Part shown: piece by piece, positions 13,133-61,095 of the stretch
How positions within the stretch are numbered: the stretch's first letter is position 1
How the letters are laid out: every line of letters begins with the position of its first letter
Origin: a bacterium
Lineage (GTDB): Bacteria; Hydrothermota; UBA3072; JAPDKE01
Direction of reading: 5' to 3'
DNA: 64,000 nucleotides
Assembly: GCA_029258725.1 (NCBI GenBank)
Contig: JAPDKE010000012.1
Span: 17,314-81,313 of the forward strand
Notes under the pieces: model-generated
Seen by the model: only the letters and a program-made list of their open reading frames with translations
The model's database searches: none
Told to the model about the DNA's origin: nothing
Position numbers and translations under genes: made by a program

Positions 13133-13145
13133 CTTCCCTCCTTTT

Positions 13146-21309: not shown

Positions 21310-22574
21310 ATCTCCTCCGCTATACGTTCAAACTCCATTTTTCTTGATGCCTTGAGGAGAACAACGTCTCCCTCTCTGAGAAACTCCCTGAGGAAGGATG
21401 CGCATTCTTCAATCTTATCAAAGTGATATTTCTCTCCCTCAAATTCCTCATATATCCTTCGTGCCCTTTTTCCACATGTCAGAAGAACGTCTGCCTTCCC
21501 CATGGTATATTTCCCTATCTCCCTGTGGAACACCTCTTCATCCCTTCCAAGTTCAAGCATATCTCCAAGAACTGCTATTCTTCTTCCTGAAAACCCTGAA
21601 AGGAAGTCCAGCGCCTCCTTCATGGAAAGGGGATTTGCATTGTACATATCCAGGATGAATGTCTTTCCTTTTTCTTTTTTTATTTCCATCCTCATTGGGG
21701 GAAGAGGTGCCTCAAGTATTCCCTTTTCTATCTCCTCCTCCGGTATTCCATACTCAAGCCCCACCACAACTGAAAGCAGGACATCCATTGCCATTGCCCT
21801 GGATGGGACAGGTAAAGGATATTCCCTCCCTTTTATTTTTATCCTTTCCCCCCTCCATTCCCCATTTATGTCTCCCTTCCCCTCAAGGCTTACCCCTATC
21901 TTTTTCCTCCATGCCACATCCCCCAGACTATCCTGATTGTAAACAAGCAGACACTCAGGGGCTGCATGGGAGAGAATTTTGAGTTTTTCACGCTTAACCC
22001 CTTCAATTGTCCCGAGACCCTCAAGGTGGGAGGGACCGACCGCGGTTATCACCGCAACATTGGGTTTTGATATCCAGGATAACCGCTCCATCTCTCCCGG
22101 TATGTTTATCGCAAGTTCAAGAACAGCATATCTTTCCTTCACCTTGAGTATGCTTAAAGGAACACCCACCAGGTTGTTGTAATTTCTCTCCGCCACATAG
22201 ACCGCAAATCTTCTCTTTAGAATACTTCCCGTGAGTGCCTTTGTCGTTGTCTTTCCGCATGAACCTGTTATTGCTATGACCTCAAAGCCCGAGGTTCTCC
22301 GGTAATATCCTGCAAGGTCACCCAGTGCCTTCAAGGTATCGGGCACGAGAATAACATTCTTAAACCCCTTACGTTCAACACATGCAGGTTTACCTGACCT
22401 GAGCTGCGCCTCCTCCACAAAATCGTGTCCATCAAACCTTTCTCCTTTCAGGGCAAAGAACATCTCCCCTGGTTTTATGGTTCTTGAATCAACAGAAAAT
22501 CCATTTACCTTTTCATCAAGATAGATATCAACACCCTTTCCACCTGTTGCCTGTAAAACGTCAAACACCCTCAT
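21285..22574 (-). CDS. murF: UDP-MurNAc-tripeptide--D-alanyl-D-alanine ligase
   Basis: ITGSCGKTTTK motif; start set at MRVFDVLQ (22574) after murE stop. Confidence 0.9.
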   Translation of the reverse strand: MRVFDVLQATGGKGVDIYLDEKVNGFSVDSRTIKPGEMFFALKGERFDGHDFVEEAQLRSGKPACVERKGFKNVILVPDTLKALGDLAGYYRRTSGFEVIAITGSCGKTTTKALTGSILKRRFAVYVAERNYNNLVGVPLSILKVKERYAVLELAINIPGEMERLSWISKPNVAVITAVGPSHLEGLGTIEGVKREKLKILSHAAPECLLVYNQDSLGDVAWRKKIGVSLEGKGDINGEWRGERIKIKGREYPLPVPSRAMAMDVLLSVVVGLEYGIPEEEIEKGILEAPLPPMRMEIKKEKGKTFILDMYNANPLSMKEALDFLSGFSGRRIAVLGDMLELGRDEEVFHREIGKYTMGKADVLLTCGKRARRIYEEFEGEKYHFDKIEECASFLREFLREGDVVLLKASRKMEFERIAEEICSTTSIH

Positions 22575-23994
22575 ACCCCATCTCCCTGAGTATTTCTCTT
22601 GCCACCTTCCTGTCGTCAAATGGAATTACCCTTTTTCCAATTATCTGATATGTCTCATGTCCCTTCCCGAGAATAAGCACAGCATCGCCTTCACCTGCGA
22701 GCCCAAGAGCCCTTTTTATAGCCTCTCTTCTGTCAAGCACCACTTCTGCATCGGGTGCACCCTGTTTTATCTCGGCTGCTATTTTTTCGGGGCTTTCGCC
22801 CCTGGGATTATCGGATGTTATTATCACCCTTTCACTGAGTCTGTACGCCACCCTTCCCATCTCCTCCCTTTTGCCCCTGTCCCTTTCACCACCAGCACCA
22901 AACACTGTGATTATCCTTCCCTTCACAAGTTCTCTCACCGAAAGAAGGAGGCTTTCCATAGCAGATGGGGTATGCGCATAATCGACGAAGACATAAAAGG
23001 GGAGAGACTTCCCCACCCTTTCCATTCTTCCAGGAACCCCTTTTAGTTTTTTTATCCCCTGAACAATCCTTTCCTCGGGAACACCATCAAGCAGTGCAGC
23101 CGAAACTGCTGCAAGAATGTTGAGTGCATTGTGCCTTCCCACAAGAGATGAACTCACCTTTATCTTCTTTCCAAGCCCCTCTATCTCCATTTCTATTCCC
23201 TCTAAGTCGCATTTCCCAACCCTTCCAACCACATTCCCTCCTGAGAGTCCATAGGTTATCTTTTTCCCACCTGAAACTTCAATGAAGTAAGGAGCCTCGG
23301 GGTCGTCTATGTTTATAACTGCATACGCCTCCTCTTTGAGCATGGAAAAGAGCCTCCCTTTGGATTCTCTGTAGTCCTCAAATGTCTTATGGTAATCCAG
23401 ATGGTCCCTTGAGAGATTTGTAAACACTGCGAAATCAAAGTCCAGGAATTCAACCCTGCGTTGTTTTAAAGCGTGCGAAGAAACCTCCATCACGCATGTA
23501 TTCAGTCCCCTGTCCAGTGCCTCTCTCAGAATTCTGTTGATGAAGATGGGGGAGGGGGTTGTATTGGTGGAGGGGATGGATTTCTCCCCCATGATATATT
23601 CAATGGTTCCTATAAGCAGGGCTGGATGGTAAATTGAGTGAAGAAGGTATGCAACGGTTGTTTTTCCATTGGTTCCGGTTATGCCAATGAGTTTTATAAA
23701 TTTAGAAGGATTCCCGTAATAGTTTGATGCAATCCTTGCCATGGCAATCCTTCCATCCGGGACAAGCACCCATGGCTTTATTTCAACCTCTCTTTCAACC
23801 ACAAAGAGCACTGCACCTTTCTTTTTTGCCTCCTCCATAAACTCGTGCCCATCGGTTATCTCCCCTTTTCTTGCGATAAAGAGATAACCGGGTTTCACCT
23901 CATCTGCCCGGTCGGTTATCCCGGCTATGGTTCCTGGAATTTCTCCTTCTTTTTTCAATATCTCAACACCCTTAAGAACCTCTTCGGTCCTCAT
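22561..23994 (-). CDS. murE: UDP-MurNAc-L-Ala-D-Glu--2,6-diaminopimelate (or L-Lys) ligase
   Basis: GITGTNGKTTVAYL, DNPR motif near C-terminus (SDNPRGE). Confidence 0.9.
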   Translation of the reverse strand: MRTEEVLKGVEILKKEGEIPGTIAGITDRADEVKPGYLFIARKGEITDGHEFMEEAKKKGAVLFVVEREVEIKPWVLVPDGRIAMARIASNYYGNPSKFIKLIGITGTNGKTTVAYLLHSIYHPALLIGTIEYIMGEKSIPSTNTTPSPIFINRILREALDRGLNTCVMEVSSHALKQRRVEFLDFDFAVFTNLSRDHLDYHKTFEDYRESKGRLFSMLKEEAYAVINIDDPEAPYFIEVSGGKKITYGLSGGNVVGRVGKCDLEGIEMEIEGLGKKIKVSSSLVGRHNALNILAAVSAALLDGVPEERIVQGIKKLKGVPGRMERVGKSLPFYVFVDYAHTPSAMESLLLSVRELVKGRIITVFGAGGERDRGKREEMGRVAYRLSERVIITSDNPRGESPEKIAAEIKQGAPDAEVVLDRREAIKRALGLAGEGDAVLILGKGHETYQIIGKRVIPFDDRKVAREILREMGYEGV

Positions 23995-25649
23995 CTCAGC
24001 CCCGCTATTTCCTTTGAGTATGGATAAAGATGTATGAGTCTTCTGGCTATCTCCCTGAAAAGCGGTGCAGCAACAACTCCTGCAAGATGTCCCTTTTGAG
24101 GCTCATCAATGAATATTCCTATCACAAACTTCGGGTTATCAAGAGGAACTATTCCAACAAAAGAGGAAACGAACTTCCACTCCATATAACCTCCCTTCCC
24201 TGCCTTCTGTGCGGTTCCTGTCTTTCCTCCAACCCTTACCCCTGGAATTTTAGCATTCTTCGCGGTTCCCTTTTCAACAACCTCCTCAAGGATTTCAAGC
24301 ATCAGTTCCGCAGTTTCCTTTTTCACAACGCGTCTCAGAGGTTCGGGTCTTGCCTGAAATACAACCTTTCCCCTCTTCTTTATTTCCTTCACAAGAATGG
24401 GCTTCATGAGTGTGCCACCATTTGCTATTGCCTGATATGCAAGGACTATCTGGAGCGGGGTTACCGATATTCCCTGACCGAAGGAAATACTGGCAAGGGT
24501 TATTCCTTTTATTTTTTCATATGAAGGAACAATTCCCTCTGCCTCTCCCGGGAGTGGTATCCCTGTGGGACATCCAAATCCAAACTTTTTCGCATACCTG
24601 TATATCTCTCTTCCTCCTATTTTCCTTCCTATGTTAATAAATCCCACATTGCTGGAGTGCACAACAGCCTCCCTCATGGTATAGGGTCCATGAGGAGAGA
24701 TATCCCTGAAGGTTATTCCTGAAATCTCAATGTGGTCGGTATCTGCCACAATCTCATCCACCTGGTATCCCTTCTCTATCCATGCACATGCCAGAACCAC
24801 CTTGAATATGGACCCGGGCTCAAAAGAGAATTCAACCGCCATGTTTTTTCTTTCCTCTGGATTTCCCTTCCCCTTGAGATTGGGATTGTAGGAAGGAACC
24901 GTTGCCATTGCATATATTTCTCCTGTTCTTGCATCAAGAACAATCCCGCATCCTTTCTTTGCACCCCAGCGCTCAACCCCTTTCCTCAAAACTTCTTCCA
25001 CCAGTGCCTGAATTTCAGAATCTATGGTGAGGTAAACATCGCATCCCTCCTCAGGCTCCTCCTGGGGATAGTCCGGGACAGGATAAAGGGTCCCTATGGG
25101 TCTTCTCTGAAGTATTCTCCATCCATCCCTCCCTTTAAGGACTTTATCCATGGAACATTCAATACCAGAAAGCCCACAGAGGTCGTTTCCGGTAAATCCT
25201 ATAAGGTTTCCGCAGAGTTCCTGCAATGGATAAAATCTTGACCACTCCCTCACGAAGTAAATTCCCGGAAGATTTATCCTTTCCTTTATCTCCTCCTCTA
25301 TTCCCTTTTCAACAAGAACTATGGGATATCCTGAGTTTAAAATTCTTCTCAGCCTTTCCTCGGACGATATTCCAGAGGAGCTGAGCACCCTTATCACATC
25401 TTCCTTATTCTTCATCTCCTTAGGTCTTGCATAGAGGGTGTAGAGTTTCACGTTGGTTGCAAGGATTATTCCATTCCTGTCCAGGATATCCCCTCTCCTT
25501 CCATGCAATTTTACCTTTCTTGTTGCCTCTTTTCTTGCCAGTTCACGGTAGTATGCGTGTTTTATTATCTGGAGGTAAATGAGTCTCACCCCCAGGCATC
25601 CCCATCCAAGGAAAAGAACTGCAAAAAGAACCTTTGCCCTCTCCTTCAT
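23991..25649 (-). CDS. ftsI: penicillin-binding protein transpeptidase (class B PBP)
   Basis: N-terminal TM, SxxK (EPGSIFK), SxN (HSSN) and KTG (GKTGTA) motifs. Confidence 0.9.
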   Translation of the reverse strand: MKERAKVLFAVLFLGWGCLGVRLIYLQIIKHAYYRELARKEATRKVKLHGRRGDILDRNGIILATNVKLYTLYARPKEMKNKEDVIRVLSSSGISSEERLRRILNSGYPIVLVEKGIEEEIKERINLPGIYFVREWSRFYPLQELCGNLIGFTGNDLCGLSGIECSMDKVLKGRDGWRILQRRPIGTLYPVPDYPQEEPEEGCDVYLTIDSEIQALVEEVLRKGVERWGAKKGCGIVLDARTGEIYAMATVPSYNPNLKGKGNPEERKNMAVEFSFEPGSIFKVVLACAWIEKGYQVDEIVADTDHIEISGITFRDISPHGPYTMREAVVHSSNVGFINIGRKIGGREIYRYAKKFGFGCPTGIPLPGEAEGIVPSYEKIKGITLASISFGQGISVTPLQIVLAYQAIANGGTLMKPILVKEIKKRGKVVFQARPEPLRRVVKKETAELMLEILEEVVEKGTAKNAKIPGVRVGGKTGTAQKAGKGGYMEWKFVSSFVGIVPLDNPKFVIGIFIDEPQKGHLAGVVAAPLFREIARRLIHLYPYSKEIAGLR

Positions 25650-25903
25650 TTAAGCCTCACAAAGTCATCTGGTTCCGGATATTCAAACCCCAGACTTTCA
25701 GCCCTCGCCTCAAGAGAAAGAGGAGATGTGTGCTTCCGGTACATTCCCTGAAGTTTTACCACCTCTGCATGGAGGTACTGTCTCTCAAGTTCCAGTTTCT
25801 CAATCTCCCTCAACATCTCCATTTCTTTTCCTATCATCCACACCCTCAAAAGGGGTGGAAGGACAAAGGCAAAGAGAAGAAGAAAAGTCTTCATGTACCT
25901 CAT
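25646..25903 (-). CDS. ftsL: cell division protein FtsL
   Basis: 85 aa, single TM + coiled coil, position between rsmH and ftsI with ATGA overlaps. Confidence 0.7.
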   Translation of the reverse strand: MRYMKTFLLLFAFVLPPLLRVWMIGKEMEMLREIEKLELERQYLHAEVVKLQGMYRKHTSPLSLEARAESLGFEYPEPDDFVRLK

Positions 25904-26748
25904 AGCTTCTCCAGCACCCTCAGGTGGGCGCTTCTCGCCCTGGGATTTCTTTTTATTTCCTCCTTCCCTGGCCTTACCGGTTTTTTTGTGAGAAGTTTCA
26001 CATCATTTCTTTCCTTAATCACCTCCAGTGCTCTTTTTTCCTCCCCCGAGTGATAGGTTATGAAAATGAGTCTTCCATCTTTTTTCAGAAGTTCTATTCC
26101 TCCCTCTATTCCAAGTTTCACATTCTCCTCTTCTTCATTTATCGCCATCCTTATAGCCTGGAATACCCTTGCAACGAATTTATGTCCCTTTCTTCTCGGG
26201 CTTCTCTTTCTCACAACAAGGGCAAGTTCAAGGGTTGTCTTCGGAAGTTTCTTTTTTATGTCTCTTGCAATTACCTTCGCATTTGGAAGGTCACCGTATT
26301 TCCTCAAAATCTTTGCAAGTTCTTCAACCGAAACATTTTCAAGAAATTCCCGCGCAGTAATTCCTTTTCTTCCGAATCTCATGTCAAGGGGACCCTCTTT
26401 TCTGAACGAAAATCCTTTTTTCTCATCCTCAAGCTGGAAGGATGAAAGTCCAAAGTCAAAAAGGATGAGGTCAAATTTTGTCTTGAATAGATTTTTCACC
26501 GTTTTCATATCCCCGTTTACGAGCATAAATCTTCCCTCAAATCCCCTCAGATTTCTGGCCGCAATTCTCAGTGATGAAAGGTCAATGTCAAGCCCAACCA
26601 CCTTTGCCTGTGTATTTTCAAGCAGAGTCAGCATGTGCCCCCCTGTTCCTGCAGTTGCGTCAAGAAAGAGTCCCTCCTTTTTTGAAAAATTCAGCACCTC
26701 CTCTGCCATTACCGGTACATGTCTCAGAGGTCCAGTTCCTCCATCCAT
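25900..26748 (-). CDS. rsmH: 16S rRNA (cytosine1402-N4)-methyltransferase
   Basis: HVPVMAEEVL N-terminus and LDATAGTGGH SAM-binding motif. Confidence 0.9.
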   Translation of the reverse strand: MDGGTGPLRHVPVMAEEVLNFSKKEGLFLDATAGTGGHMLTLLENTQAKVVGLDIDLSSLRIAARNLRGFEGRFMLVNGDMKTVKNLFKTKFDLILFDFGLSSFQLEDEKKGFSFRKEGPLDMRFGRKGITAREFLENVSVEELAKILRKYGDLPNAKVIARDIKKKLPKTTLELALVVRKRSPRRKGHKFVARVFQAIRMAINEEEENVKLGIEGGIELLKKDGRLIFITYHSGEEKRALEVIKERNDVKLLTKKPVRPGKEEIKRNPRARSAHLRVLEKL

Positions 26749-27161
26749 TCCTCTATCTTTTCCTCAATTACCTCTTCCTTTTCCGCGTAAACTTCGGGGT
26801 TCCATATCTCTATCTTGTCAATCAGACCTATTATGAGTGCCTCCTTTTTTATCCCTGCATATTCAAGCAGATGTGCGGGGATGTTTATTCTACCCTGAGA
26901 ATCAATCGGGCATCTCTCTGCATAGGATACGAATTTTCTCAAAAGCCACCTCACCCTCTCCCTGGTATAGGGAAGGGAACGGAGACGCTCTTCAAACTCC
27001 GCCCAGATGGAAAGGGGATAAACCAGGAGTGAGCCATCAAATCCCCTTGTAACGACGAACGTCCCCTCATCCTCAGGCCTGAGGAGCCTGCGGAACTCCG
27101 CAGGTATAAAAAGCCTTCCCTTGTGATCAACACTGTACGTGTGCCTTCCAGTATATCTCAT
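26724..27161 (-). CDS. mraZ: transcriptional regulator MraZ
   Basis: Tandem DxxGR repeats (VDHKGRLFIP, IDSQGRINIP); start set at ATG 27161 (MRYTG...), supplied ORF begins at upstream GTG. Confidence 0.85.
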   Translation of the reverse strand: MRYTGRHTYSVDHKGRLFIPAEFRRLLRPEDEGTFVVTRGFDGSLLVYPLSIWAEFEERLRSLPYTRERVRWLLRKFVSYAERCPIDSQGRINIPAHLLEYAGIKKEALIIGLIDKIEIWNPEVYAEKEEVIEEKIEEWMEELDL

Positions 27162-27170
27162 TTTGCTTTC

Positions 27171-27225
27171 CCCACTTTTCCCCACTATTCACCACCACTA
27201 TACCGGAATAAATTTTATTTGTCAA
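27171..27225 (-). promoter_or_regulatory. Pmra: TTGACA-N17-TATAGT promoter followed by three GTGG(T/G) direct repeats at 10-bp spacing (putative MraZ operator)
   Basis: Minus-strand reading: CCCCTTGACAaataaaatttattccggTATAGTggtggtgaataGTGGGgaaaaGTGGGgaaagcaaaATG. Confidence 0.7.
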
Positions 27226-48079: not shown

Positions 48080-48574
48080 CTATTTCGCCTTCCATTTTAA
48101 GGTTTCCTTATACCCGATCATCAAAGGGGAAAGAGAAAAATCCATCATTATTTGTATTACAAGTTCCACCTGTGGAGTATAGGTTCGGCAGGATGCTATG
48201 ATTTTATTCCCGACCAGGGATATTCTCCAGTGAGGATTTTCAGGGAGGGGGATTTTTGAGGCGGGCTTTATCCTTTCCCTGTATTTCTCATATATTTTCT
48301 TTGCCTTTTTTCTTATCTTTTCTGCAGGAAGTATTATCCTTCCCGAAGATGTGACAATGTCCCCCTCCTTCACTTCTTTAAAGTGCACATGCCTCATGTA
48401 AAGGGTAGAATTTCTGATGCATTCTATATATTCCTTCCTTTCCCTCCTTCCTCTAATCCTGTATACCCCGGTATCGGGAAAGGAAACTCCAGGGATTATC
48501 CTCTTGAAAGTTGTAAAGATTGTATCTTCTTTTATTTCCACCCTGAAAGGAGAAAGAAAAAGAAGAAAAAGCAT
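48080..48574 (-). CDS. hypothetical protein
   Basis: 164-aa ORF, host-like codon usage, no recognisable motif. Confidence 0.4.
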   Translation of the reverse strand: MLFLLFLSPFRVEIKEDTIFTTFKRIIPGVSFPDTGVYRIRGRRERKEYIECIRNSTLYMRHVHFKEVKEGDIVTSSGRIILPAEKIRKKAKKIYEKYRERIKPASKIPLPENPHWRISLVGNKIIASCRTYTPQVELVIQIMMDFSLSPLMIGYKETLKWKAK

Positions 48575-48618
48575 GATAAAAAGAGGGGGACCTCAAAGGT
48601 CCCCCCGGGCTTTACGGC

Positions 48619-48822
48619 TTAATTCACTTTCACAACGTTTTCTGCCTTCAGTCCCTTCTCTCCTTCCACTATATCGAATTCAACTTCTTCGCCTTCTTTC
48701 AATGTCTTGTATCCTTCCTGCTGTATCGCCGAGTAATGAACGAACACTTCCCTACCGTCTTCCATCTCGATGAAGCCGTAGCCCTTCCTGTCATTGAACC
48801 ACTTAACCTTACCGCGTGCCAT
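48619..48822 (-). CDS. cspA: cold-shock protein (CspA family)
   Basis: [21 protein letters not shown] motifs; start at second ATG. Confidence 0.9.
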
Positions 48823-48859
48823 CCAACTCATACCTCCTTCCTATAAGACATGTTGCTTC

Positions 48860-48887
48860 AATATAACACTTTTTTTTGATTTGTCAA
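48860..48887 (-). promoter_or_regulatory. TTGACA-N16-TATATT promoter for csp
   Basis: Hexamers read on minus strand. Confidence 0.5.
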
Positions 48888-48904: not shown

Positions 48905-49975
48905 TTATAAACCCATGAGATTTCTTGAAAGGTCACCGGGAAAGGTAAGGGGATACTCATCAAGCACCTCATTCCATTTTTTCTTTGCCTCTTCCTTTTT
49001 CCCCTCCTTCCAGAGTTCCTTTGCCTCACGATAGAGATAAAAAGGACGAAGGAAGGAAAGTGTATCGGGTTCTCCTTTAATATACCTTATCCAGGGGTCC
49101 CGGTACTCTCTCCCCTCACCCGTGAGCTTCTCTCCTGCATACCGGGAAACCTCCTCGGGGTCAGCAATTTTAAGCAAAAGGAGCAGATCCCCGGGAACAT
49201 CCTTTCCCATCCTCAAAGCCTCAGAGAGAACATCCCATGCCTTTTTTGTATTTCCCGAAGCAGCCCAGACAAGCGCCTCCTCCACCTTATCCTGCACAAA
49301 CTTCATACACTCCTCAAACTTCCCTTCCTTTATAAGCTGACTTACCCTCAATCTTTTTACCGCATCTCCATATTTTTCCTCGCCTATATATTTTTTCCAT
49401 TTTGAATAAACCACCTCTGCCTCTTCAAACCTCTCTGAGGATACAAGCCCGGAAAAAATCCTGCCCGCAACAAATCTTGCCCTTTTTGTTTTTGAAACAT
49501 GTTCAAAACATCTCCGAAACTCCTCACCCTCAACTGCAAGAAGAACCGCCTTTATCTCTTCAGGGGATAGAACCTTTACAGGTGATGAGAGGAAAATCTC
49601 AACCGCCTTTTCTTTTTCCTTTTTTTCCAGGAGCGGAACTATGAAAAAGTGCCTGTATTCCTGAGGAGAGCATTCTAAAAGAATAAGCAGACTGTCCCTT
49701 TTCACCTTTCTCAGTTCTTTAACAATCCTTTTTCTCACAAGAGGTCTTGAAAAAAGTATGGGTAAACCATCGCATCCAAGATATCTCCAGTATGGCAAAA
49801 ACTCCCTTCTTGGTCCATGCTCCCTTATTCCCTTTTCAAGATATTTTTTCACTTCATCGTATCTCTTTTCACGCTCAAGCCCGGAGAGAATTTTTACATA
49901 GAGAGCAACAGGATGCCTCTCCTTCAACTCAAACTCCCTCAACCACTGCTCAAGGGCAAATACAATCCACATCAT
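48905..49975 (-). CDS. hypothetical helical (TPR-like) protein
   Basis: 356-aa ORF; ATGA-type overlap with upstream giant ORF. Confidence 0.5.
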   Translation of the reverse strand: MMWIVFALEQWLREFELKERHPVALYVKILSGLEREKRYDEVKKYLEKGIREHGPRREFLPYWRYLGCDGLPILFSRPLVRKRIVKELRKVKRDSLLILLECSPQEYRHFFIVPLLEKKEKEKAVEIFLSSPVKVLSPEEIKAVLLAVEGEEFRRCFEHVSKTKRARFVAGRIFSGLVSSERFEEAEVVYSKWKKYIGEEKYGDAVKRLRVSQLIKEGKFEECMKFVQDKVEEALVWAASGNTKKAWDVLSEALRMGKDVPGDLLLLLKIADPEEVSRYAGEKLTGEGREYRDPWIRYIKGEPDTLSFLRPFYLYREAKELWKEGKKEEAKKKWNEVLDEYPLTFPGDLSRNLMGL

Positions 49976-52782
49976 CTCGTTATCCTCCTCATGTACTCCA
50001 TTATCATATCCCTGTATCCTTCGGGAATCCCCTTCTTCATCTCCTCCTCAAACTGCCTCTTTATCCACAGTTTTCTCTCTCCCAGGTCAGGTGGAGGATG
50101 GGGAATCTCAGGAGGATAGTAAAGCCCGGGTTTTGAACGCCTCTTTTTTGAAAACCTCCTCTTCCTCATCGCCCGTTCTGCCTCAATGAAGTGCTGCAGC
50201 GTTTTTTTCTGGCGCTCAAGCAGTTTCTCATCCAGCATTCCCTTCTCAAGTTGTTTTGCCATCTCCCTCATTTCCTCTGCAAGGGAGGAGAACATCTCCC
50301 CCAGTCCTTCGGCTTTCTCGGCAAGTTTTCTCATCTGCTCCGCAAGTTTTCTTGCCCCTTCCTCCCTCTGTGGGGATGGAAGGGGGATCAGTGCCTTCAT
50401 CCCTGCCCCCAGACTTCTCATCTGTTTCAGAATGGATGCCAGGGTTGCCAGGGGAGAACCCCCACCCTCAGGCTGCTGTAAGAGATGGAACATGGCAAGT
50501 TTTATCTCCCTTTCCACCCTTTCCCTGTCAAAATCCTCGGGATTATTCAGTTCCCTTATTGCATTGTTTATATGTGCAAGGGCACGGGGGGAAAAGGCAA
50601 GGGTTTTCAGAAGCAATTTTTCCGCCTCCTCCCTTGCCCTCCTCAATGCATCCTTTATCCCTGCCTGTTTTAAAATCTCGTAATCCCCATCCATCACGTC
50701 CTCTTCTTCCTCAAGCAGGAAGTAAAGGGAAAAGGCAAGTTTCTTAATCCTTTCCATATCCTCCGGAGATGCAAGCATTGCACCCTCTGCATTCTCAATC
50801 CGGGATGATAAATTCTCCAGGTTTTTCATTATCTTCTGGAAAAGTGCCTCATCCCATTCCCCTTTTTCCATTTTTTCAGACAACCTTTTCATACAACTGC
50901 ATACCTTTCCCGATATTTTGAATTTCTCAAGTTCCTTCTCCAGCTCCTCCATCTTTTCCGCAAGGGATTTTTCTCTCCGGGCATAATCTTCCGGTGAAGA
51001 CGGTGCTTCTTTTCCTATTTTCTCCTGCTCCTCCTTCACCCCTTCAACCTCCTCCTTGATCATCCTCAGGTCCATGAGTTTTTTTATCTTCTCCAGCATC
51101 TTTCTTCCCATTCTGAGTGCGGAGAGGAGTCTTTTCTCATCCAGCTGGAGTTCCTCAAGGGACCTGGTTTCAACATCCTGACTTATTGTCTCAAGGTCAA
51201 GGGAGGAAAGGAGTTCCTCTATGAGTTTCATCTCCCTGCTTACCTCCTCGGAAGAAAGAACCTCGGCAAGTTTTTTGAGACGTTCAAGTTTCTCCACAAG
51301 TCTTTTATGCTCCTCCAGGGTCTCCCTTATCCTCTCCGCCTCCTCCCATGTAATCTCTCCCTTCTCAAGGGCATCCTCCATCTGCTCAACCAGTTTTTCC
51401 GACGTTTGCTCCGCCTCCCTGAACTCATCCCCCATCTTTTCTGTGAATACCTCTATTTCCTCGAATATTTCTTCAAGTTCCGGGGCATGGAGAACAATCC
51501 TTGCCGTGTATTCCTGTTCCCTCATGTCCCTTGCGGTTGCAGTTACAACAACGGAATCGCCGGGGAAGAGTTCCGGAAATGCAAGCGTGTCTTCCCACTC
51601 CACCTCAATCTCCCCTTCAACCTTCATCCTCCACCTATCTTCTCCAGCAGTGATAATTATCTCCTTCAATCCATAGTCGTCCTCAGCCCTTATGGACACC
51701 TCCGTTGCCATTGTCTCATCAAGCTTTGTTCCGGAGGGAGGATAGAGAAATGTGATGAAGGGAGGGCGGTCCGGGATGGGATGGATGAAAAAGGTAAGTT
51801 TTTCAGGGGAGGGGGTCAGGGTCGTGTCAAAGAGAACAAGGTCAACGGTGTCGTTTTCTTCAATGATAAACCTCCCCCGGAATGAACTCCCATCAACCTT
51901 AAATTTCTTTTTACCCAGGGTTACTTTACCCAGAGGAAGGTCTGATTCTCCCGCCATTTCTATCCGGGTTTCCACCGGTGCAACCACATTTGTATTCCAT
52001 CCGGTATCAACAACCGGAGGAATTCCCAGGTATTCTGGATAGTGATAGGTGATGGTGAGTTTAACAAGATGTGGGTTTGGGACAGGGATTATGGGGATTC
52101 TCTTTCTGAACCAGCGGTATAAAACCGTTATGGTGTCCCTCTTTCCCGGGATAAGAAAAAGGAAAGCCCCTTTTATTTTCCTTCCCTCCATGCGATTTCC
52201 ATCCGAATAAACAAAGAGCCTGGGAAAGGGTGCCTCAACCCTTAAAATACCATACCTTCCCTCATGGAGATTATGGGGAGGGAAAATCTTTACACAAGGG
52301 GAAGAAAAACAGGGGGAAATAAAAAAGAAGGGAAAAACAAAAATGAGTGGGAGAAGATAAATATAAAAAGGTACAGGCGGAAGAAAATCGCGCTCGTTTA
52401 TCCCTTCCAGCCTTTTTGAGGCATATTCCTCAGCCATTTTAAAAAGGTCCTCTGATTCACCCTCCCTCAACCCATCATTTACAAGAAAGAGGCATCCCTT
52501 TAAATCAAGTTTTTCCTCAAGTTGCCTTATAACATCCATTCTTCGTGGCAACCTGCGGAAAAGAAAAAGGAAAGGGAGAAAAGATATAAAAATCCCGAGA
52601 CCCCACTCAGAAGGGAAAAGATAAAACCGGCGGTGGAAGATGGAAAGGAGGAAGTAAATGAAAAAGGAGAGAAGGAGGGAAAGAGAAAGCCTGTAAAGAA
52701 TTTCCCTTCTTCTCTTTCCTTTAAGTATTCTCTTTATCTTCTTGAGCCAAACTTCGGTATCCTGAAGGTGCATGCCGAACAC
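49972..52782 (-). CDS. large membrane-anchored protein: N-terminal double TM, beta-rich middle, about 450-aa E/K-rich coiled coil, C-terminal basic region
   Basis: 936-aa ORF; two hydrophobic helices (LSLSLLLSFFIYFLLSIF, GLGIFISFLPFLFLF); no NTPase motifs. Confidence 0.6.
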   Translation of the reverse strand: MFGMHLQDTEVWLKKIKRILKGKRRREILYRLSLSLLLSFFIYFLLSIFHRRFYLFPSEWGLGIFISFLPFLFLFRRLPRRMDVIRQLEEKLDLKGCLFLVNDGLREGESEDLFKMAEEYASKRLEGINERDFLPPVPFYIYLLPLIFVFPFFFISPCFSSPCVKIFPPHNLHEGRYGILRVEAPFPRLFVYSDGNRMEGRKIKGAFLFLIPGKRDTITVLYRWFRKRIPIIPVPNPHLVKLTITYHYPEYLGIPPVVDTGWNTNVVAPVETRIEMAGESDLPLGKVTLGKKKFKVDGSSFRGRFIIEENDTVDLVLFDTTLTPSPEKLTFFIHPIPDRPPFITFLYPPSGTKLDETMATEVSIRAEDDYGLKEIIITAGEDRWRMKVEGEIEVEWEDTLAFPELFPGDSVVVTATARDMREQEYTARIVLHAPELEEIFEEIEVFTEKMGDEFREAEQTSEKLVEQMEDALEKGEITWEEAERIRETLEEHKRLVEKLERLKKLAEVLSSEEVSREMKLIEELLSSLDLETISQDVETRSLEELQLDEKRLLSALRMGRKMLEKIKKLMDLRMIKEEVEGVKEEQEKIGKEAPSSPEDYARREKSLAEKMEELEKELEKFKISGKVCSCMKRLSEKMEKGEWDEALFQKIMKNLENLSSRIENAEGAMLASPEDMERIKKLAFSLYFLLEEEEDVMDGDYEILKQAGIKDALRRAREEAEKLLLKTLAFSPRALAHINNAIRELNNPEDFDRERVEREIKLAMFHLLQQPEGGGSPLATLASILKQMRSLGAGMKALIPLPSPQREEGARKLAEQMRKLAEKAEGLGEMFSSLAEEMREMAKQLEKGMLDEKLLERQKKTLQHFIEAERAMRKRRFSKKRRSKPGLYYPPEIPHPPPDLGERKLWIKRQFEEEMKKGIPEGYRDMIMEYMRRITR

Positions 52783-53354
52783 ATTCCTTTATTTATTCTT
52801 TTATGCGTCACGGAGAAAAAGTAAACCTTTCCATCCTTTATAACACTCCACTCTACAGGGAATGCATCGTAGTCTCCAACTCTTTCAAATGAAGTATAAT
52901 CTATCTCAACACGTTCAGGACTTTCAATAACAACCTTCTTTATAACCCCGTCCGCATCCAGGTATGCCTCCCCCTTTATCCCCTTTCCCTTAAACTCAAT
53001 AATCCTCTCCTTCTTCCATTTTCTATTTTCCGGCATGAAGTGTAGCCAGTCAACAGCGCAGAGGTTTTCAAATGTATAAAAGGGAACCTCCTCAACCCGT
53101 GCGCGCTTCATATCCACACGCCATAGTTTTTCTCCATCGTATATGAGACTGTAATCCTTCACCCATCCTATCTCACTTTTTCTGTAAACCACAATCCTGT
53201 ATTTTGGCTCGGACCTCATCCACTGATAGGAAAACTTCACATCCTCCCCCACTATCTCTATCTTCATATCCCTTATCGCCTCATCCCACGCCTTTTTCCT
53301 TTCGTCTATCAGCAAAAAGGGATTGGAGGTTGAAAGGCATAAAAGGAATATCAT
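52734..53354 (-). CDS. hypothetical protein with hydrophobic N-terminus (possible lipoprotein, LolA-like size)
   Basis: 206-aa ORF, MIFLLCLSTS N-terminus. Confidence 0.5.
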   Translation of the reverse strand: MIFLLCLSTSNPFLLIDERKKAWDEAIRDMKIEIVGEDVKFSYQWMRSEPKYRIVVYRKSEIGWVKDYSLIYDGEKLWRVDMKRARVEEVPFYTFENLCAVDWLHFMPENRKWKKERIIEFKGKGIKGEAYLDADGVIKKVVIESPERVEIDYTSFERVGDYDAFPVEWSVIKDGKVYFFSVTHKRINKGMCSACTFRIPKFGSRR

Positions 53355-54040
53355 GGAATGCCTCCTTTCTTCAGGAATTCAACAAACTCGTGGAGGTCAT
53401 TTACAACAAGGTCGGGTTCATGAATTCCATCCGTGTTCTCTCCAGTTTTTACAAGAACCGAAAAAATCCCCAGATTCTTTGCCCCATCCACATCAGCATC
53501 CTTTCTGTCCCCTATGTGCACGGCATCCTGAGCATCCATCCCTGCCCTTTTGAGCGCGTAAAGGAAAATACCGGGTTCCGGCTTTCTTACACCCACATCT
53601 ATGGAAAAAACAGGATAATCTATGAGTTCAAGAACACCGAGTTCCTTCAGTTTTTCCTTTTCCACATCTCCGTAGGGAGTATTGGATATTATTCCCGTCC
53701 TTATTCCTTTCCCCTTGAGAAACTCAAGCGTCTCCTTTACGCCAGGGAGTAAAGATACGGGAAGTTTTCTCGTGGTTTCGGGATAAACCCTTCCAAGAGA
53801 GGAATCACCCTTACCCAGGAAAAGGGAAAGGAACCTTCCCGCCTCCTCCACCGGAACCTCCCTGGGATAAAGTGCCTCCACCACCTCTCTTGTTCTCAAA
53901 AGCGCCTCCCTTATCTTTTCCTCCGGGAGGGAGGTTTTTTGCCTGAGGTATTCAATCCTCAGGCTCATCAGATAATCACTGTAATCCTCTCTCGCAGGCT
54001 TTATAAGTGTCCACCAGCAGTCAAAGAATACAACCTTCAT
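53351..54040 (-). CDS. HAD-superfamily hydrolase with non-canonical motif I (FFDCWWT)
   Basis: HAD motifs II-IV (ISNT, K..., GDRKDADVDGAKNLG); motif I lacks second Asp. Confidence 0.6.
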   Translation of the reverse strand: MKVVFFDCWWTLIKPAREDYSDYLMSLRIEYLRQKTSLPEEKIREALLRTREVVEALYPREVPVEEAGRFLSLFLGKGDSSLGRVYPETTRKLPVSLLPGVKETLEFLKGKGIRTGIISNTPYGDVEKEKLKELGVLELIDYPVFSIDVGVRKPEPGIFLYALKRAGMDAQDAVHIGDRKDADVDGAKNLGIFSVLVKTGENTDGIHEPDLVVNDLHEFVEFLKKGGIP

Positions 54041-57732: not shown

Positions 57733-58410
57733 TCAGAACCTGAAGTTAAGCGAAAATCTGGTGAAGGTTAAACCGAAGAGGTAAGAGAAGATGCTCTCGT
57801 AGGTGTCCGTAGTATTGTCCCAGGAGTATTCATAGGTGTAAGACGAACTTCCCTTAAATCCCTGGATACCAAACTCTGCACCAACACTGAAGGATGAGGA
57901 AAAGAAGTACTCCCCTCCAATTCCTGCCTTGAAAAGGTAAGGGGAAAGGAATTCTTCTATGGATTCCTTATCTTCCTCTTCCAGTTCAGTCGTATCAGAA
58001 TACTCACCCGTCACATTACCCATACTATCATAATATGCCCAGTGGTAGACGTACTTTCCTGAACAGAAGGCAAACACCTTGGACCCGACCAGGAAGAAGT
58101 AAAAAGAAGATTTCATTTCTTCTGGTGTGTGCATAAACCACTTAATTCCAATTCCAGGAATAACAAAAAAGAGATCCCCTGTGAGTTTTTCACCCGTAGT
58201 ATACACACGCGTGCCCTCTACCGTCTCCTCATACCTGTATTCCCATGAGTAATGGTACTTAGCACCTTCGAGACTCATATAAGGGCATATTTTTCCGAAT
58301 CCATATCCTATCCCCATGGTATTGAGAAATCCTCCTTTGTAAACACTGAATACCACCCTTCCGGGTAGAAAGAGGGGCAAAAAGAAAAGAAGAATAGAGA
58401 GTCTTTTCAT
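57733..58410 (-). CDS. outer-membrane beta-barrel-like protein
   Basis: Signal peptide MKRLSILLFFLPLFLPG, alternating aromatic/hydrophilic beta pattern, C-terminal ...LNFRF. Confidence 0.6.
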   Translation of the reverse strand: MKRLSILLFFLPLFLPGRVVFSVYKGGFLNTMGIGYGFGKICPYMSLEGAKYHYSWEYRYEETVEGTRVYTTGEKLTGDLFFVIPGIGIKWFMHTPEEMKSSFYFFLVGSKVFAFCSGKYVYHWAYYDSMGNVTGEYSDTTELEEEDKESIEEFLSPYLFKAGIGGEYFFSSSFSVGAEFGIQGFKGSSSYTYEYSWDNTTDTYESIFSYLFGLTFTRFSLNFRF

Positions 58411-58600
58411 ATAACACCTCCCTGTACCACAGGTTACGCAGGTGCCCCTTCTTTCAATATATTCTGGCAGAAAATCTCCATATGTGTCAAGAGCGATTCT
58501 TCCCAATTTTCCCTCAGGCGTTCACCTTCCTGAAAAACGCGGGATTTCACAGAAGAAGGGAGTAAATAGTATGATTCAGTAGAAATCAAAAAATAAAAGT

Positions 58601-58839: not shown

Positions 58840-61095
58840 TCAAAATCTTATTCTCACTCCTGCTTTTGCTTCCAGGGTTGAGTAGTCCGGGGAGAAGGAG
58901 TGGGTATGTTTCAGGTTTCCCGTGAGTTCAAAGTTTTCATACGAAGAACGAAGTTCCAGCCTTGTCTCCCTCAAAACCTGCCTTGAGTCAATAAAGGAGC
59001 GCTTCTCCCTGAACCCCGCATCAGCCCTGAAATACTCAAATCCTGTGAGAGAAAAAGAAATACCCGATAAAAGCCTTCCCACCCTCACCTCTTCAATCTT
59101 TGAAACCCTGGGGTCAATCCCATACTCATATTCATATCCCAGGTCCATCCCCATTGAAAGAAAGGATGTAATCCCGGCAAAAAACCCTCCATCAGCACCC
59201 AGGGTCCTGTAATCATAAGGAACAGAATCAGGCATCTCCTTTTTATAATCCTCAAATCTCAACCTTCCCTTTATCCTTCTCCCCTCCGTGAAAATAAGGG
59301 TAAACCCTGTGTAATACAACCACTTCTCTTCCTCCTCATAAACTGTAACCGTATCCCCTGCCGTATCTTCCTCCGTAGGAAAAAATCTGGGAAATATCCC
59401 CCTCCTTTTCCCCCTTGATATCCCGGACTCGCAACTTATCCCTCCCGATGGAGAAAATCTCAATCTCCAGTTATTTCTTTCCTCTCTATTATCCTGAAGC
59501 AATCTCCCGTTTTCCTCAAGGTAATAAAATCGGTTTCGTTCATCCACATATCCTGTGTTTAAAAATCTCCATGGAGATAGCCCCACCTCGGTAACATTGC
59601 TCCATGAACGCTGGGGTGTAAATCCTTCTTCATTCTTCATCAATCTGAATGAAGGTCTCCAGGCAAGTGTAAGAAAGGAAGGATTGAAGGTAAGATTGAG
59701 AATTCCCGTATGAACCTTAAAAGGAAGACTGTCCCTCCTTCTTGTCTCTATCTCATATCTTCCCTGTGCCCTGAGAAACTTTAATGGTGTAAATCTCACA
59801 TCCCCATGCAATCTGATGGAGGAAAGAATTATGGAAACACCACCTCCAATGGAGAAAATGGAACGTGTAAAATTTCCTGAAATATTCCCCTCCCATTCGT
59901 TTTCCTTCCCCTTCCGATACTCCCCTCCTGCCTGCATGGAAAAAGAAAGCATTCTCAGGCTCAGTTTTCCTCCAACAGTATTAAAAGCAAGTGTGTCCCT
60001 CTCCTCCCTTCCCGCATGAATCTCAAAATTCCGGTATCTTAAATAAACCTTCCTTACCCTTCTTTTCTTACTCCCTGAGTATATCCTGGAGGAGTATCCA
60101 AGGTATTTAACCTCATAACTCCATCCTTTTTCCTCGGTATCCTCCCTTCTTGCATAGTCCCCCGAAAATCTCATCCATTCAAAGGGATTTAAACCTATCC
60201 TTCCCCTTACATTCCTCTCTATGTGCTTTCCTATGTTTGCATAACCAGAATCAGCCCAGGTTATTCCCCCATCCATGGAAACCCAGCCTGCCTTTATTTT
60301 GCCTGTAAGGCTCCATGAGCGATGGAAAAGGGTATCAAGTGAAAGCCTTCCAGAAACCCCTGCCCCTTTATATTCAATACCACCATGAAACTCATGAAAA
60401 CCTCCTTTAACCCGGGAATAACCAAGGGTTAAAATTTTTGTTTTTATCCCTCCATCCACTCCATAAAGAACCCTCCCTTCCCCTTCCTCAAGGTATTCAT
60501 ACTCTATCTCCACCGTCTCCTCAGGCTTTATTATTCTTTTAAAGGTTATTCTCCCCCTTTCATAGTCCATGAGGTAATCCTTCCCCCTCTCCATTAACTC
60601 AAGGGAAAGTCCCTCACCCACCCTTACACGCTCACTCCCGACAATTATTGATGAATGCAATAATTCAAAAGGACCCTGGGTCCCATCCCCGGAAAACCTT
60701 TCAAGTTCATGCTTCCCCCTGAGAATGGAATAGAAGCCCGAGAGGAATAAGATTCTCGGGAATATCTCCCCCTTTATCCCTCTCAATCTTTTACCCACAA
60801 CCAGGTTCCCCATATTCCCTTCAAAATCCCCAAGAAAAGCGCTTCCCCACGACCACCTTCCCGTAACACCAGCCCGCTCCTCCTGTGGCAATCTCCCCTG
60901 GTATATCTCCCCCTCAAGTTCTATCCTGCCATAAAGCGAACCCTTTATTTTCAGGGATAAATGCTCATCACGGTAAAAATAGGGATAAAAGCCGGGAGGT
61001 GAGCCTGAAAGAATACGCCTTAAACTCAGGTTTATCACCTTCTCACCGGAAAGGTCAACCCAGGTGGAGTCGGCAAAAAATAAAAATATCACCAT
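58840..61095 (-). CDS. large outer-membrane beta-barrel protein (751 aa)
   Basis: Hydrophobic N-terminus, long amphipathic beta pattern, C-terminal ...GVRIRF. Confidence 0.6.
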   Translation of the reverse strand: MVIFLFFADSTWVDLSGEKVINLSLRRILSGSPPGFYPYFYRDEHLSLKIKGSLYGRIELEGEIYQGRLPQEERAGVTGRWSWGSAFLGDFEGNMGNLVVGKRLRGIKGEIFPRILFLSGFYSILRGKHELERFSGDGTQGPFELLHSSIIVGSERVRVGEGLSLELMERGKDYLMDYERGRITFKRIIKPEETVEIEYEYLEEGEGRVLYGVDGGIKTKILTLGYSRVKGGFHEFHGGIEYKGAGVSGRLSLDTLFHRSWSLTGKIKAGWVSMDGGITWADSGYANIGKHIERNVRGRIGLNPFEWMRFSGDYARREDTEEKGWSYEVKYLGYSSRIYSGSKKRRVRKVYLRYRNFEIHAGREERDTLAFNTVGGKLSLRMLSFSMQAGGEYRKGKENEWEGNISGNFTRSIFSIGGGVSIILSSIRLHGDVRFTPLKFLRAQGRYEIETRRRDSLPFKVHTGILNLTFNPSFLTLAWRPSFRLMKNEEGFTPQRSWSNVTEVGLSPWRFLNTGYVDERNRFYYLEENGRLLQDNREERNNWRLRFSPSGGISCESGISRGKRRGIFPRFFPTEEDTAGDTVTVYEEEEKWLYYTGFTLIFTEGRRIKGRLRFEDYKKEMPDSVPYDYRTLGADGGFFAGITSFLSMGMDLGYEYEYGIDPRVSKIEEVRVGRLLSGISFSLTGFEYFRADAGFREKRSFIDSRQVLRETRLELRSSYENFELTGNLKHTHSFSPDYSTLEAKAGVRIRF

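Follow-up and report, generated by a model that had tools for sequence, protein, structure and literature searches.

A conserved gene cassette built around a very divergent DUF4175-family protein, a candidate periplasmic scaffold

The stretch of DNA analysed here (64 kb, hereafter the window) carries four overlapping ORFs on the minus strand, which an earlier note had described and which we could confirm. They encode a HAD-superfamily hydrolase, a 206-aa protein (p206), a 936-aa protein (hereafter the giant) and a helical protein of 356 aa (Table 1), all four labelled 'hypothetical protein' in public MAGs. The HAD and p206 genes share 4 nt (ATGA), as do the giant gene and the 356-aa ORF, and a strong Shine-Dalgarno sequence for p206 is located within the HAD gene. 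Between p206 and the giant the overlap in the window amounts to 40-49 nt, the last 13-16 codons of p206, encoding the CTF[KR]IP motif, being read in a different frame as the first codons of the giant (V-x-x-M/L-H-I-Q-N/D). This overlap is 37-49 nt long in all five loci compared (window, L003, L005, L002 and L015), and its DNA, ATGTGTG..C.TGCAC.TTCAA.AT.CC, is kept in each of them. As an ORF, the giant starts with a GTG codon (52782); the NCBI gene model begins at M4 (ATG, 52773), giving 933 aa.

Table 1. Features of the cluster and of the giant, in window coordinates
Feature	Position	Strand	Remarks
HAD-superfamily hydrolase	53351..54040	-	229 aa; Pfam Hydrolase match
p206, 206-aa β-rich partner protein	52734..53354	-	clade-specific family
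Giant, 936-aa divergent DUF4175-family protein	49972..52782	-	HMMER and hhalign homology
TPR-like helical partner, 356 aa	48905..49975	-	TPR_14 match
Dual-coding overlap of p206 and giant	52734..52782	-	conserved DNA and ORF overlaps
N-terminal membrane module of giant	52303..52692	-	TM1-TM2, loop, TM3 (hydropathy and AF2)
Three tandem Ig-like/FN3-like β-sandwich domains	51487..52290	-	aa ~165-235, 239-335, 340-432
All-α E/K-rich region, ~440 residues	50155..51477	-	aa 436-876
Conserved C-terminal module of giant	49978..50163	-	disordered basic linker and two short helices
Downstream boundary of cluster	48584..48887	-	cold-shock gene, promoter-like site, terminator-like hairpin

Downstream of the 356-aa ORF lies a cold-shock protein gene on the same strand (48619-48822) with a promoter-like site of its own (48860-48887; TTGACA-16-TATATT, 11/12, with a TG) and a strong terminator-like hairpin (48584-48606; a 10-bp stem followed by a T run), indicating that the transcription unit ends at the 356-aa ORF. 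The cluster is flanked by housekeeping genes (gltX, csp, nrdDG, purD and the dcw cluster) and PADLOC was negative, so that a defence-system or mobile-element context was rejected. No NTPase, nuclease or defence model of Pfam, NCBIfam or PADLOC matched the cluster proteins, in keeping with the earlier reading that NTPase and nuclease motifs are missing.

The giant had previously been considered unassignable. Direct family scans of the giant and p206 with Pfam, NCBIfam and PADLOC, and profile comparison with PDB sequences, gave nothing significant, and word-indexed protein searches with the E/K-rich giant returned merely 2, 13 and 1 matches. The assignment was resolved by an exhaustive HMMER profile search of 1.8 billion proteins, using the window protein and its relative P0002 as query, which recovered 1,928 relatives at E<=1e-3, of which 164 reached E<=1e-30; most are full-length proteins of 1,000-1,130 aa that are collinear with the giant from end to end. 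Five of the scanned relatives (P0010, P0014, P0020, P0029 and P0047) passed the cut-off of the Pfam model DUF4175 (PF13779; 28.6-100.5 bits, cut-off 27.3; E 4.8e-07 to 9.3e-29), and the giant profile matched the same five at E 2.3e-59 to 3.1e-45. Furthermore, an hhalign comparison of the close clade (A3) with the DUF4175-positive proteins (A8) gave a probability of 100% and an E-value of 2.4e-87 over 956 columns.

The PF13779 model found no match in the window giant or P0002 even at E<=0.1 and was negative on the close relatives P0004 and P0006, and no NCBIfam model matched the giant or eight of its homologues, including TIGR02302, which we take to be the alphaproteobacterial model for the DUF4175 family. 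Since both collections miss the giant directly, its membership rests on transitive and profile-profile homology. The 956-column alignment and the invariant motifs of the β-domains described below argue against a match confined to the compositionally biased helices. Matches to T2SSF, DUF5799, JetC, SMC, designed bundles and MCPs were weak, far below cut-off and compositional, and were rejected. By sequence comparison, then, the giant is a very divergent full-length homologue of the DUF4175 family. This family is represented by about 1,900 clusters of relatives at 50% identity in the library searched, and the cluster is a variant of a widespread, uncharacterised family and not a new kind of system.

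The giant shares with DUF4175 proteins an architecture in which two or three TM helices at the N-terminus precede a long region free of membrane segments. An AlphaFold model built from a 43-sequence alignment reached a pLDDT of 79 (46.8 when built from two sequences), with a pTM of 0.43, at which domain packing and overall length are not readable. Instead of the two TM helices proposed in the earlier note, hydropathy gives three hydrophobic helices within aa 31-160 and none beyond (~31-51 and 57-74, i.e. TM1 and TM2 at aa ~31-74, and 137-160, TM3), with AF2 helices at 6-53, 57-74 and 140-155 and a K/R-rich helical loop of ~60 aa (aa 75-136) between TM2 and TM3. The third segment is kept across the close clade, and at least three N-terminal hydrophobic segments are present in 129 of 155 full-length homologues, 116 of them having exactly three. 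The clustering of K/R before TM1 and after TM2 suggests an N-in/C-out topology.

Beyond the membrane module follow the predicted Ig-like domains, a region with the family-invariant residues D338, P348, D368-D369 (DDxG), D419 and P434. The coiled coil of approximately 450 residues that had been proposed for the next region could not be upheld, as AlphaFold predicts ~16 short helices of 12-51 residues arranged as stacked helical bundles; in the model the region looks more like a stack of four-helix bundles than a single long coiled coil. The 'basic tail' of the earlier note does exist, but it is a conserved family motif, SKKRRSxPG followed by PExYxxxxxEYxRxL. Its basic linker (aa 874-896, SKKRRSKPGLYYPP) is disordered, with pLDDT <50, and the two short helices after it finish in PEGYRDMIMEYMRRI. 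R881 and Y930 are invariant in the 43 sequences, and S883, P885 and G886 in the close clade.

Canonical DUF4175 proteins (~1,000-1,200 aa) likewise have three N-terminal TM helices, DDxG, LEEI[FY], a long helical region and a C-terminal R...Y, whereas the window giant, with a length ~170 aa below the family median (1,107 aa), has neither the canonical WDL nor the DNDxxGPK motif and differs in its gene partners. A likeness to GldM/PorM of the T9SS motor is structural only: there is no sequence homology and no Pfam GldM match, the domain order is reversed, with the Ig-like domains first in the giant, GldM/PorM have one TM helix against three, a GldL-like partner is lacking and the rmsd of the multi-domain alignment is very high.

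The helical region might also be read as that of a coiled-coil protein of the cytoplasm or division site, akin to SMC/Rad50 or to AdvA, that organises the chromosome or the division site. Weak compositional matches to SMC, Rad50 and JetC models point that way, as does AdvA, an essential division protein of A. baumannii with an N-terminal DUF4175 annotation and an envelope/division phenotype (PMC7481262). However, the SMC-type matches score 18-20 bits against a cut-off of 567, the giant has neither ATPase heads nor an unbroken heptad coiled coil, hundreds of residues long, such as SMC, Rad50 or myosin-like proteins would show, and its three TM segments, together with the Ig-like domains in tandem, point to a location outside the cytoplasm. 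AdvA, for its part, is likened to the giant by annotation and not by sequence; its DUF4175 annotation lies in an N-terminal region with two TM helices, and the protein tolerates transposon insertions only in residues 203-238, downstream of that annotation (PMC7481262). We regard a cytoplasmic role as extremely unlikely.

The closest relatives of the giant, which include two recorded as candidate division WOR-3, allowed us to assess which neighbours travel with it. p206 is encoded upstream of the giant in five of the six closest-relative loci and a TPR-like ORF directly downstream in all nine close-clade loci, and the HAD gene was found beside the cassette in none of the closest-relative loci. 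Indeed, tblastn did not detect a HAD gene beside the giant in L001-L005, and upstream in the orthologous loci CitMHS, GlmS-like and RM methylase genes or unknowns are found instead. The lack of conserved linkage reduces the functional unit from the four genes of the earlier note to three.

The hydrolase itself belongs to a well-known, unrelated family (Pfam Hydrolase, E 6.5e-22; HAD_2, 3.7e-18); its best NCBIfam matches, including all equivalog models, are below cut-off, leaving it a generic HAD-IA type. Its motif I is degenerate, as had been noticed: FFDCWWTL keeps the nucleophile Asp of the consensus DxDx(T/V), with the second Asp, the general acid/base, replaced by Trp (DCW instead of DxD). 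All four genes could still serve one pathway, for example with the HAD protein processing a phosphorylated envelope precursor handled by the complex. The 4-nt overlap with p206, the position of the p206 Shine-Dalgarno sequence and the joint occurrence of all four genes, HAD included, in one set of closely related MAG assemblies are in its favour, but outside the species cluster of the window the gene is missing beside the cassette in every orthologous locus, and its own family is a generic HAD-IA type. We therefore give a four-gene pathway very little credence; the HAD gene is probably a lineage-specific passenger, coupled to the cassette in this genome only.

Both partners are restricted to the clade of the window. 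Orthologues of p206 with 30-35% identity immediately precede the giant in L002, L003, L005/L014 and L015, and share an invariant C-terminal motif, N-x-G-x-C-x-x-C-T-x-x-I-P; no match to p206 was found in Pfam, NCBIfam, PADLOC or the PDB. Its earlier description as lipoprotein-like is contradicted by the orthologues: Cys6 occurs in the window sequence only, being missing from three aligned orthologues, and the N-terminal hydrophobic stretch is ~9 residues long with no K/R, so that p206 has neither a charged n-region nor a conserved lipobox Cys behind a signal peptide. Most of the 356-aa protein is helical sequence free of scored repeats; it matches TPR_14 with 28.3 bits (cut-off 23.5); TPR models also match three of its five orthologues. 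Both partners have at their N-termini a short hydrophobic stretch that lacks charges, whereas the signal peptides of other window proteins carry K/R. The absence of canonical signal peptides makes export of the two partners uncertain. An origin of p206 or the TPR-like protein by splitting of a domain from the longer canonical giants was rejected, as hmmsearch --max came back empty, and the same search revealed no homologues of either in MoxR-type loci. At L011, where a more distant WOR-3 giant is encoded, the adjoining 206-aa ORF and TPR gene are not detectably homologous to the window partners.

What holds of the earlier picture is that of a membrane-anchored protein with most of its mass outside the cytoplasm and with small partners, with which the odd number of TM helices, the Ig-like domains and the linkage to the p206 and TPR-like genes are consistent. 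On balance, we favour the view that the DUF4175 giant is a periplasmic scaffold anchored in the inner membrane and that p206 and the TPR-like protein are its two clade-specific partners, the topology, periplasmic location and complex formation of the giant being predictions. According to the model and topology rules, the three N-terminal TM helices would anchor the giant in the inner membrane with its N-terminus in the cytoplasm, and the remainder would project into the periplasm as a rod of three Ig-like β-sandwiches and a chain of helical bundles, terminating in the conserved basic linker and short helical motif. The p206 and TPR-like proteins, presumably coupled to the giant in translation, may assemble on this periplasmic part, and the conserved linker or motif at the C-terminus is a plausible binding site for the TPR-like protein. 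Together they would then serve the envelope as a scaffold or sensor, in one functional class with the DUF4175 proteins that Bat-like operons of other phyla encode, but genetically uncoupled from MoxR/vWA in this lineage.

As a special case of such a scaffold, and not an alternative to the family assignment, the giant might span the envelope as a tether linking the inner membrane to the outer membrane or peptidoglycan, with p206 and the TPR-like protein as outer partners. This we consider unlikely: none of the three proteins contains a peptidoglycan-binding domain (OmpA, LysM, SPOR), an outer-membrane β-barrel or a lipobox, the helices are short and bundle-like as opposed to a long rigid coiled coil, and a pTM of 0.43 gives no dependable length.

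The Bat-like operons offer the closest genomic comparison. In MoxR-DUF58-BatA(vWA) operons (Bacteroides aerotolerance-type; Borrelia BB0173 region), whose mechanism has to our knowledge stayed obscure since the 1990s, the gene for a distant homologue of the giant follows BatA or BatA and GATase1_like; such genes lie directly after MoxR-DUF58-BatA or BatA-GATase1_like in L006, L009/L010, L012, L018, L020, L021 and L023. TPR proteins are also present there, e.g. Peptidase_MA_2+TPR genes in L006 and L009, but the window cassette has no adjacent MoxR, DUF58 or vWA gene, its partners being p206 and the TPR-like gene. In a membrane-anchored vWA protein of the Bat-like type, the vWA domain is periplasmic (PMC5700661). 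The sole MoxR (AAA_3) gene of the window (4362-5339, + strand) has unrelated neighbours, DUF4837 and a CCA-adding enzyme, and tblastn with DUF58, BatA, VWA and GATase1_like queries from L006, L007 and L009 detected none of these in the 64-kb window or in L001-L005. With no DUF58 or vWA gene in the window or close-clade loci, the functional parallel with Bat-like systems is an indirect one.

The missing partners could nevertheless be supplied in trans, the giant serving as substrate or membrane platform of MoxR/vWA remodelling together with the window MoxR, an AAA+ ATPase, and vWA/DUF58 genes elsewhere in the genome. The placement of distant homologues immediately behind MoxR-DUF58-BatA in at least seven loci, the 49% identity of the window MoxR to the operon-linked MoxR of L006 and, in the WOR-3 locus L011, the distance of ~8 kb between MoxR and the giant speak for this possibility. 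On the other hand, the window MoxR is encoded ~45 kb from the giant beside unrelated genes, no close-clade locus contains DUF58 or BatA/vWA, and MoxR is cytoplasmic, whereas predictions place the bulk of the giant in the periplasm. We regard cooperation in trans as possible but rather improbable. An opposite and bolder proposal, which we consider doubtful, is that in this lineage of uncultured, seemingly WOR-3-related bacteria the DUF4175 trio of a CxxC β-protein (p206), a three-TM rod of Ig-like domains and helical bundles and a TPR protein is an autonomous periplasmic machine assembling without MoxR/vWA. If this were true, Bat-like envelope systems would have DUF4175 proteins as their structural core and MoxR/vWA as an accessory regulator, and the cassette would represent the minimal form of such a system.

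We know of no DUF4175 protein with a known structure or biochemical function, and the present finding alone does not make the function testable. The published phenotypes of relatives are envelope-related: deletion of a TIGR02302-named gene of A. caulinodans reportedly causes overproduction of EPS (title cited in PMC6842974), and RSP_0730, a TIGR02302 family protein, is listed in the table of CenR binding sites in R. sphaeroides (PMC9275681). To this family our analysis adds a divergent subclade overlooked by the current Pfam and NCBIfam models, as well as an architectural model that combines three TM helices and three Ig-like domains with stacked helical bundles and a conserved C-terminal motif. 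Furthermore, the stripped-down context of the cassette, with two specific partners and no MoxR/vWA nearby, suggests what the minimal working unit may be.

The earlier note held the 936-aa protein (the giant) to be unassignable. Like p206, the product of the 206-aa ORF, it had no significant match in Pfam, NCBIfam, PADLOC or PDB sequences, and a word-indexed search returned only the giant itself and P0002, a metagenomic relative with 29% identity. An exhaustive HMMER search with a profile of these two sequences against 1.84 billion representatives yielded 1,928 matches at E<=1e-3, 775 at E<=1e-10 and 164 at E<=1e-30, the best 150 being mostly 1,000-1,130 aa long and collinear up to the last residue, starting at about residue 250 or at the N-terminus. 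Five of nine relatives scanned against Pfam passed the gathering threshold of PF13779 (DUF4175; E 4.8e-07 to 9.3e-29); the closest relatives among the nine fell below it. Profile-profile comparison of the close clade, i.e. the nearest relatives of the giant (n=7, none Pfam-positive), with distant matches (n=10, five shown to be DUF4175-positive) gave a probability of 100% and an E value of 2.4e-87 over 956 aligned columns. D338, P348, D368, D419, P434, R881 and Y930 are invariant in a 43-sequence alignment, and the consensus motifs DDxGL, LPGD and LEEI[FY] and the C-terminal consensus RQ..L..LL.A.RSIR....S.KR.S..G...P..Y....I..YF..L are recognisable in the giant. Together, the profile matches, the profile-profile alignment and the kept motifs make it almost certain that the giant is homologous to the DUF4175 family over its whole length, as a divergent member out of reach of current Pfam and NCBIfam models. 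The finding is thus a divergent subclade of a known function-unknown family and not a categorically new system; what is new is the gene context, which is simpler and includes two clade-specific partners.

No homologous solved structure was found among PDB sequences. An AlphaFold2 model built on the 43-sequence alignment reached a mean pLDDT of 79.1 and a pTM of 0.43, against a pLDDT of 46.8 with a two-sequence alignment. Instead of the two TM helices first described, the model and hydropathy give three, and exactly three N-terminal TM-like segments occur in 116 of 155 full-length homologues (at least three in 129), almost none of which has such segments later in the chain. The supposed 450-residue coiled coil, in turn, is more aptly called a chain of helical bundles, given its many short helices. 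From the K/R clusters that precede TM1 and follow TM2 we infer, by the positive-inside rule, an N-in/C-out topology, which would leave about 770 residues periplasmic.

Features of the window, of related loci and of the giant
Feature	Position	Strand	Remarks
TMEM260-like O-mannosyltransferase/TPR, 943 aa	627-3458	+	before MoxR
DUF4837 lipoprotein	3412-4365	+	before MoxR
MoxR (AAA_3)	4362-5339	+	only one in window
prfB (release factor 2)	6453-7503	+	classical programmed +1 frameshift; shift site 6498-6504
Suggested dcw cluster	12071-27185	minus	
Protein with short hydrophobic start	48080-48574		
Terminator-like hairpin	48584-48606		strong, 10-bp, GC-rich
Cold-shock gene, 67 aa	48619-48822	minus	between 356-aa and 164-aa ORFs
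Promoter-like site	48860-48887		TTGACA-16-TATATT, extended TG
TPR-like ORF, 356 aa	48905-49975	minus	short hydrophobic start
Giant ORF, 936 aa	49972-52782	minus	GTG start; NCBI protein model begins 3 codons later at M4
p206 ORF, 206 aa	52734-53354	minus	short hydrophobic start
HAD ORF, 229 aa	53351-54040	minus	
257-aa protein	57733-58506	minus	C-terminus ...LNFRF
751-aa protein	58840-61095	minus	C-terminus ...VRIRF; short hydrophobic start
Peptidase_MA_2 + TPR protein	L006 2515-5100; L009 2436-5111		860-890 aa
DUF401 (CitMHS-like transporter)	L005 (= L014) 11889-13109; L015 7821-9041		convergent
Giant, hydrophobic helices 1 and 2	aa about 31-51, 57-74		AlphaFold2; hydropathy
Giant, helical segment	between helices 2 and 3		~60 residues; AlphaFold2
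Giant, third hydrophobic helix	aa 137-160		AlphaFold2; hydropathy agrees; conserved in clade
Giant, three β-sandwich domains	aa about 165-235, 239-335, 340-432		pLDDT 85-95 for last two
Giant, ~16 helices	aa 436-876		longest 51, 39, 30 residues; rest 12-26
Giant, basic linker	aa 874-896		low confidence; conserved SKKRRSxPG
Giant, two short terminal helices	after basic linker		AlphaFold2

The four minus-strand ORFs lie exactly where the earlier note placed them, and all are annotated 'hypothetical protein [bacterium]' in the public MAGs carrying them. The HAD/p206 and giant/TPR-like pairs each overlap by 4 nt (ATGA), and p206 and giant by 40-49 nt. Related loci were collected from genomic and metagenomic sequence, and local HMMs of both partner families were run on their ORFs. 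This gave nine distinct close-clade loci (the window, L001, L002, L003, L004, L005 (= L014), L013, L015 and L016), among which two genome records bear the title candidate division WOR-3. In every one of the nine, the gene next downstream of the giant encodes a homologue of the 356-aa protein; in L001, L002, L003, L005 and L015, the loci with ORF coordinates listed, it overlaps the giant's end by 4 nt. The gene next upstream encodes a p206 homologue (30-35% identity, three orthologues aligned) in five of the six loci with upstream sequence, the overlap there being 37-49 nt; local HMM and locus comparison found none in L001. The overlap DNA is conserved and encodes, in two frames, the invariant p206 C-terminus CTF[KR]IP and the giant start V-x-x-[ML]-H-I-Q-[ND]. 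Both partner families were undetectable inside longer canonical giants or in any other retrieved locus. By its TPR_14 score of 28.3 bits (cut-off 23.5) the 356-aa protein is TPR-like, and TPR models match three of five orthologues.

The 229-aa protein truly belongs to the HAD superfamily (Pfam Hydrolase, E 6.5e-22), scoring below cut-off for every NCBIfam equivalog. Its motif I, FFDCWWTL, is indeed degenerate as first read, retaining the nucleophile Asp with Trp replacing the second Asp. Its gene was absent from all close-clade orthologous loci checked besides the window, and the genes flanking the cassette vary (CitMHS, GlmS-like, RM methylase, DUF401). Since the p206 and TPR-like linkage is kept and the HAD gene never present, the conserved unit is, on this comparison of loci, the three genes p206, giant and TPR-like, with HAD as a passenger. 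Of the four genes originally joined in one operon, only these three would make up the functional unit, and a four-gene pathway including HAD, which its overlap with p206 in the window would accommodate, is very unlikely. The DUF401 gene lies immediately 3' of the cassette in two independent loci; a CitMHS transporter gene lies upstream in L003, and the window has no such gene. The transcription unit ends at 48905, because the cold-shock gene directly downstream of it, absent from the 80-aa ORF list, has its own near-consensus promoter-like site and a terminator-like hairpin. The 164-aa ORF past it had no family match in Pfam or NCBIfam and is separate from the unit.

We rejected p206 as a lipoprotein, as it had initially been described: its orthologues do not share Cys6, and its N-terminal hydrophobic stretch is both short and uncharged, whereas other proteins of the window carry canonical lipoprotein signals. 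Its sole landmark is the invariant end N-x-G-x-C-x-x-C-T-x-x-I-P. Very short uncharged hydrophobic starts (MIFLLCLS, MMWIVFAL, MLFLLFLS, MVIFLFFA) occur in several proteins without a family match, also in L001-L005, and orthologues of both partner families keep them as M-[IL]-x-L-L-L-x-S. Signal peptides of the canonical, K/R-containing type and lipoboxes are present in other parts of the window. The pattern is possibly a lineage-specific export or sorting signal.

Among distant relatives, the giant comes immediately after MoxR(AAA_3)-DUF58-BatA/vWA genes in L006, L009/L010, L012, L020, L021 and L023. It follows BatA-like and GATase1_like genes in L018 and likewise in L019 and L026, where the close-clade profile picked out the giants. 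In L006 the giant is also followed by a GATase1_like gene, and in L007/L008 it is on its own, a vWA gene lying close by on the opposite strand. Judged by gene order, this adjacency ties the DUF4175 family to 'Bat-like' MoxR-vWA envelope operons. For such operons, a Borrelia study showed one membrane vWA protein to be an inner-membrane protein whose vWA domain is periplasmic (PMC5700661). The Peptidase_MA_2 + TPR gene lies upstream of MoxR in L006 and L009, with one small gene between (in L009 for a DUF4159 protein), and the GATase1_like protein is also conserved in MoxR-DUF58-BatA-DUF4175 clusters, which suggests a larger conserved set of six to eight genes.

In contrast to these systems, the window giant has no MoxR, DUF58 or BatA gene next to it and has p206 and the TPR-like protein as partners instead. 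DUF58, BatA, VWA and GATase1_like queries (tblastn) gave no match in the window or close-clade loci. In the WOR-3 locus L011, which is more distant, a TPR protein overlap-coupled to the giant comes after it, with MoxR about 8 kb away and DUF58 or vWA likewise absent. The window does hold a MoxR gene, about 45 kb from the giant beside DUF4837 and a following CCA-adding enzyme gene, and continued dependence of the giant on MoxR/vWA in trans is possible, if doubtful. This MoxR gene is an orphan, tblastn of the window giving no DUF58/vWA partner nearby; such an arrangement is unusual for MoxR.

A literature search on the DUF4175 family found almost nothing; we take TIGR02302 to be its alphaproteobacterial counterpart. 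According to a title in the reference list of PMC6842974, Azorhizobium caulinodans overproduces EPS and is defective in infection when a 'TIGR02302 family' gene is deleted. The binding-site table of CenR in Rhodobacter sphaeroides, where CenKR was studied as an envelope and division regulator (PMC9275681), includes RSP_0730, which is listed there under the TIGR02302 family. In Acinetobacter, the essential division protein AdvA is annotated with DUF4175 close to its two TM helices (PMC7481262). All three hints point to the cell envelope and none to a mechanism. A cytoplasmic SMC- or AdvA-like role, to which the AdvA annotation could be related, is very improbable for a protein with the predicted periplasmic topology.

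The 257-aa and 751-aa proteins had no Pfam match; the aromatic residue at the end of each, a typical feature of β-barrels in the outer membrane, suggests that the envelope is diderm. N-terminal sequences (for example PBP-like, MraY-like and MurC-like) suggest a division/cell-wall (dcw) cluster, a housekeeping context. The prfB frameshift, in which a 16-codon leader ends CTT TGA C and the PCRF/RF-1 frame goes on in the +1 frame, is ordinary, already known biology.

We consider it reasonably probable that the giant is an inner-membrane-anchored protein with two bound partners, forming an envelope scaffold or sensor uncoupled from MoxR-vWA. Three TM helices would hold it in the inner membrane, and its rod of Ig-like domains and helical bundles would extend into the periplasm. 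Translational coupling would supply p206 and the TPR-like protein in fixed proportion to the giant, which both would bind, a plausible TPR ligand being its conserved disordered basic linker or C-terminal motif. The complex would be of the class of DUF4175 components in MoxR-vWA systems. An actual inner-to-outer-membrane tether would be compatible with this scaffold or sensor but is unlikely. On a practical matter, the analysis widens the DUF4175 family past current models, supplies a model of the giant's architecture and points to a minimal unit that could be studied.
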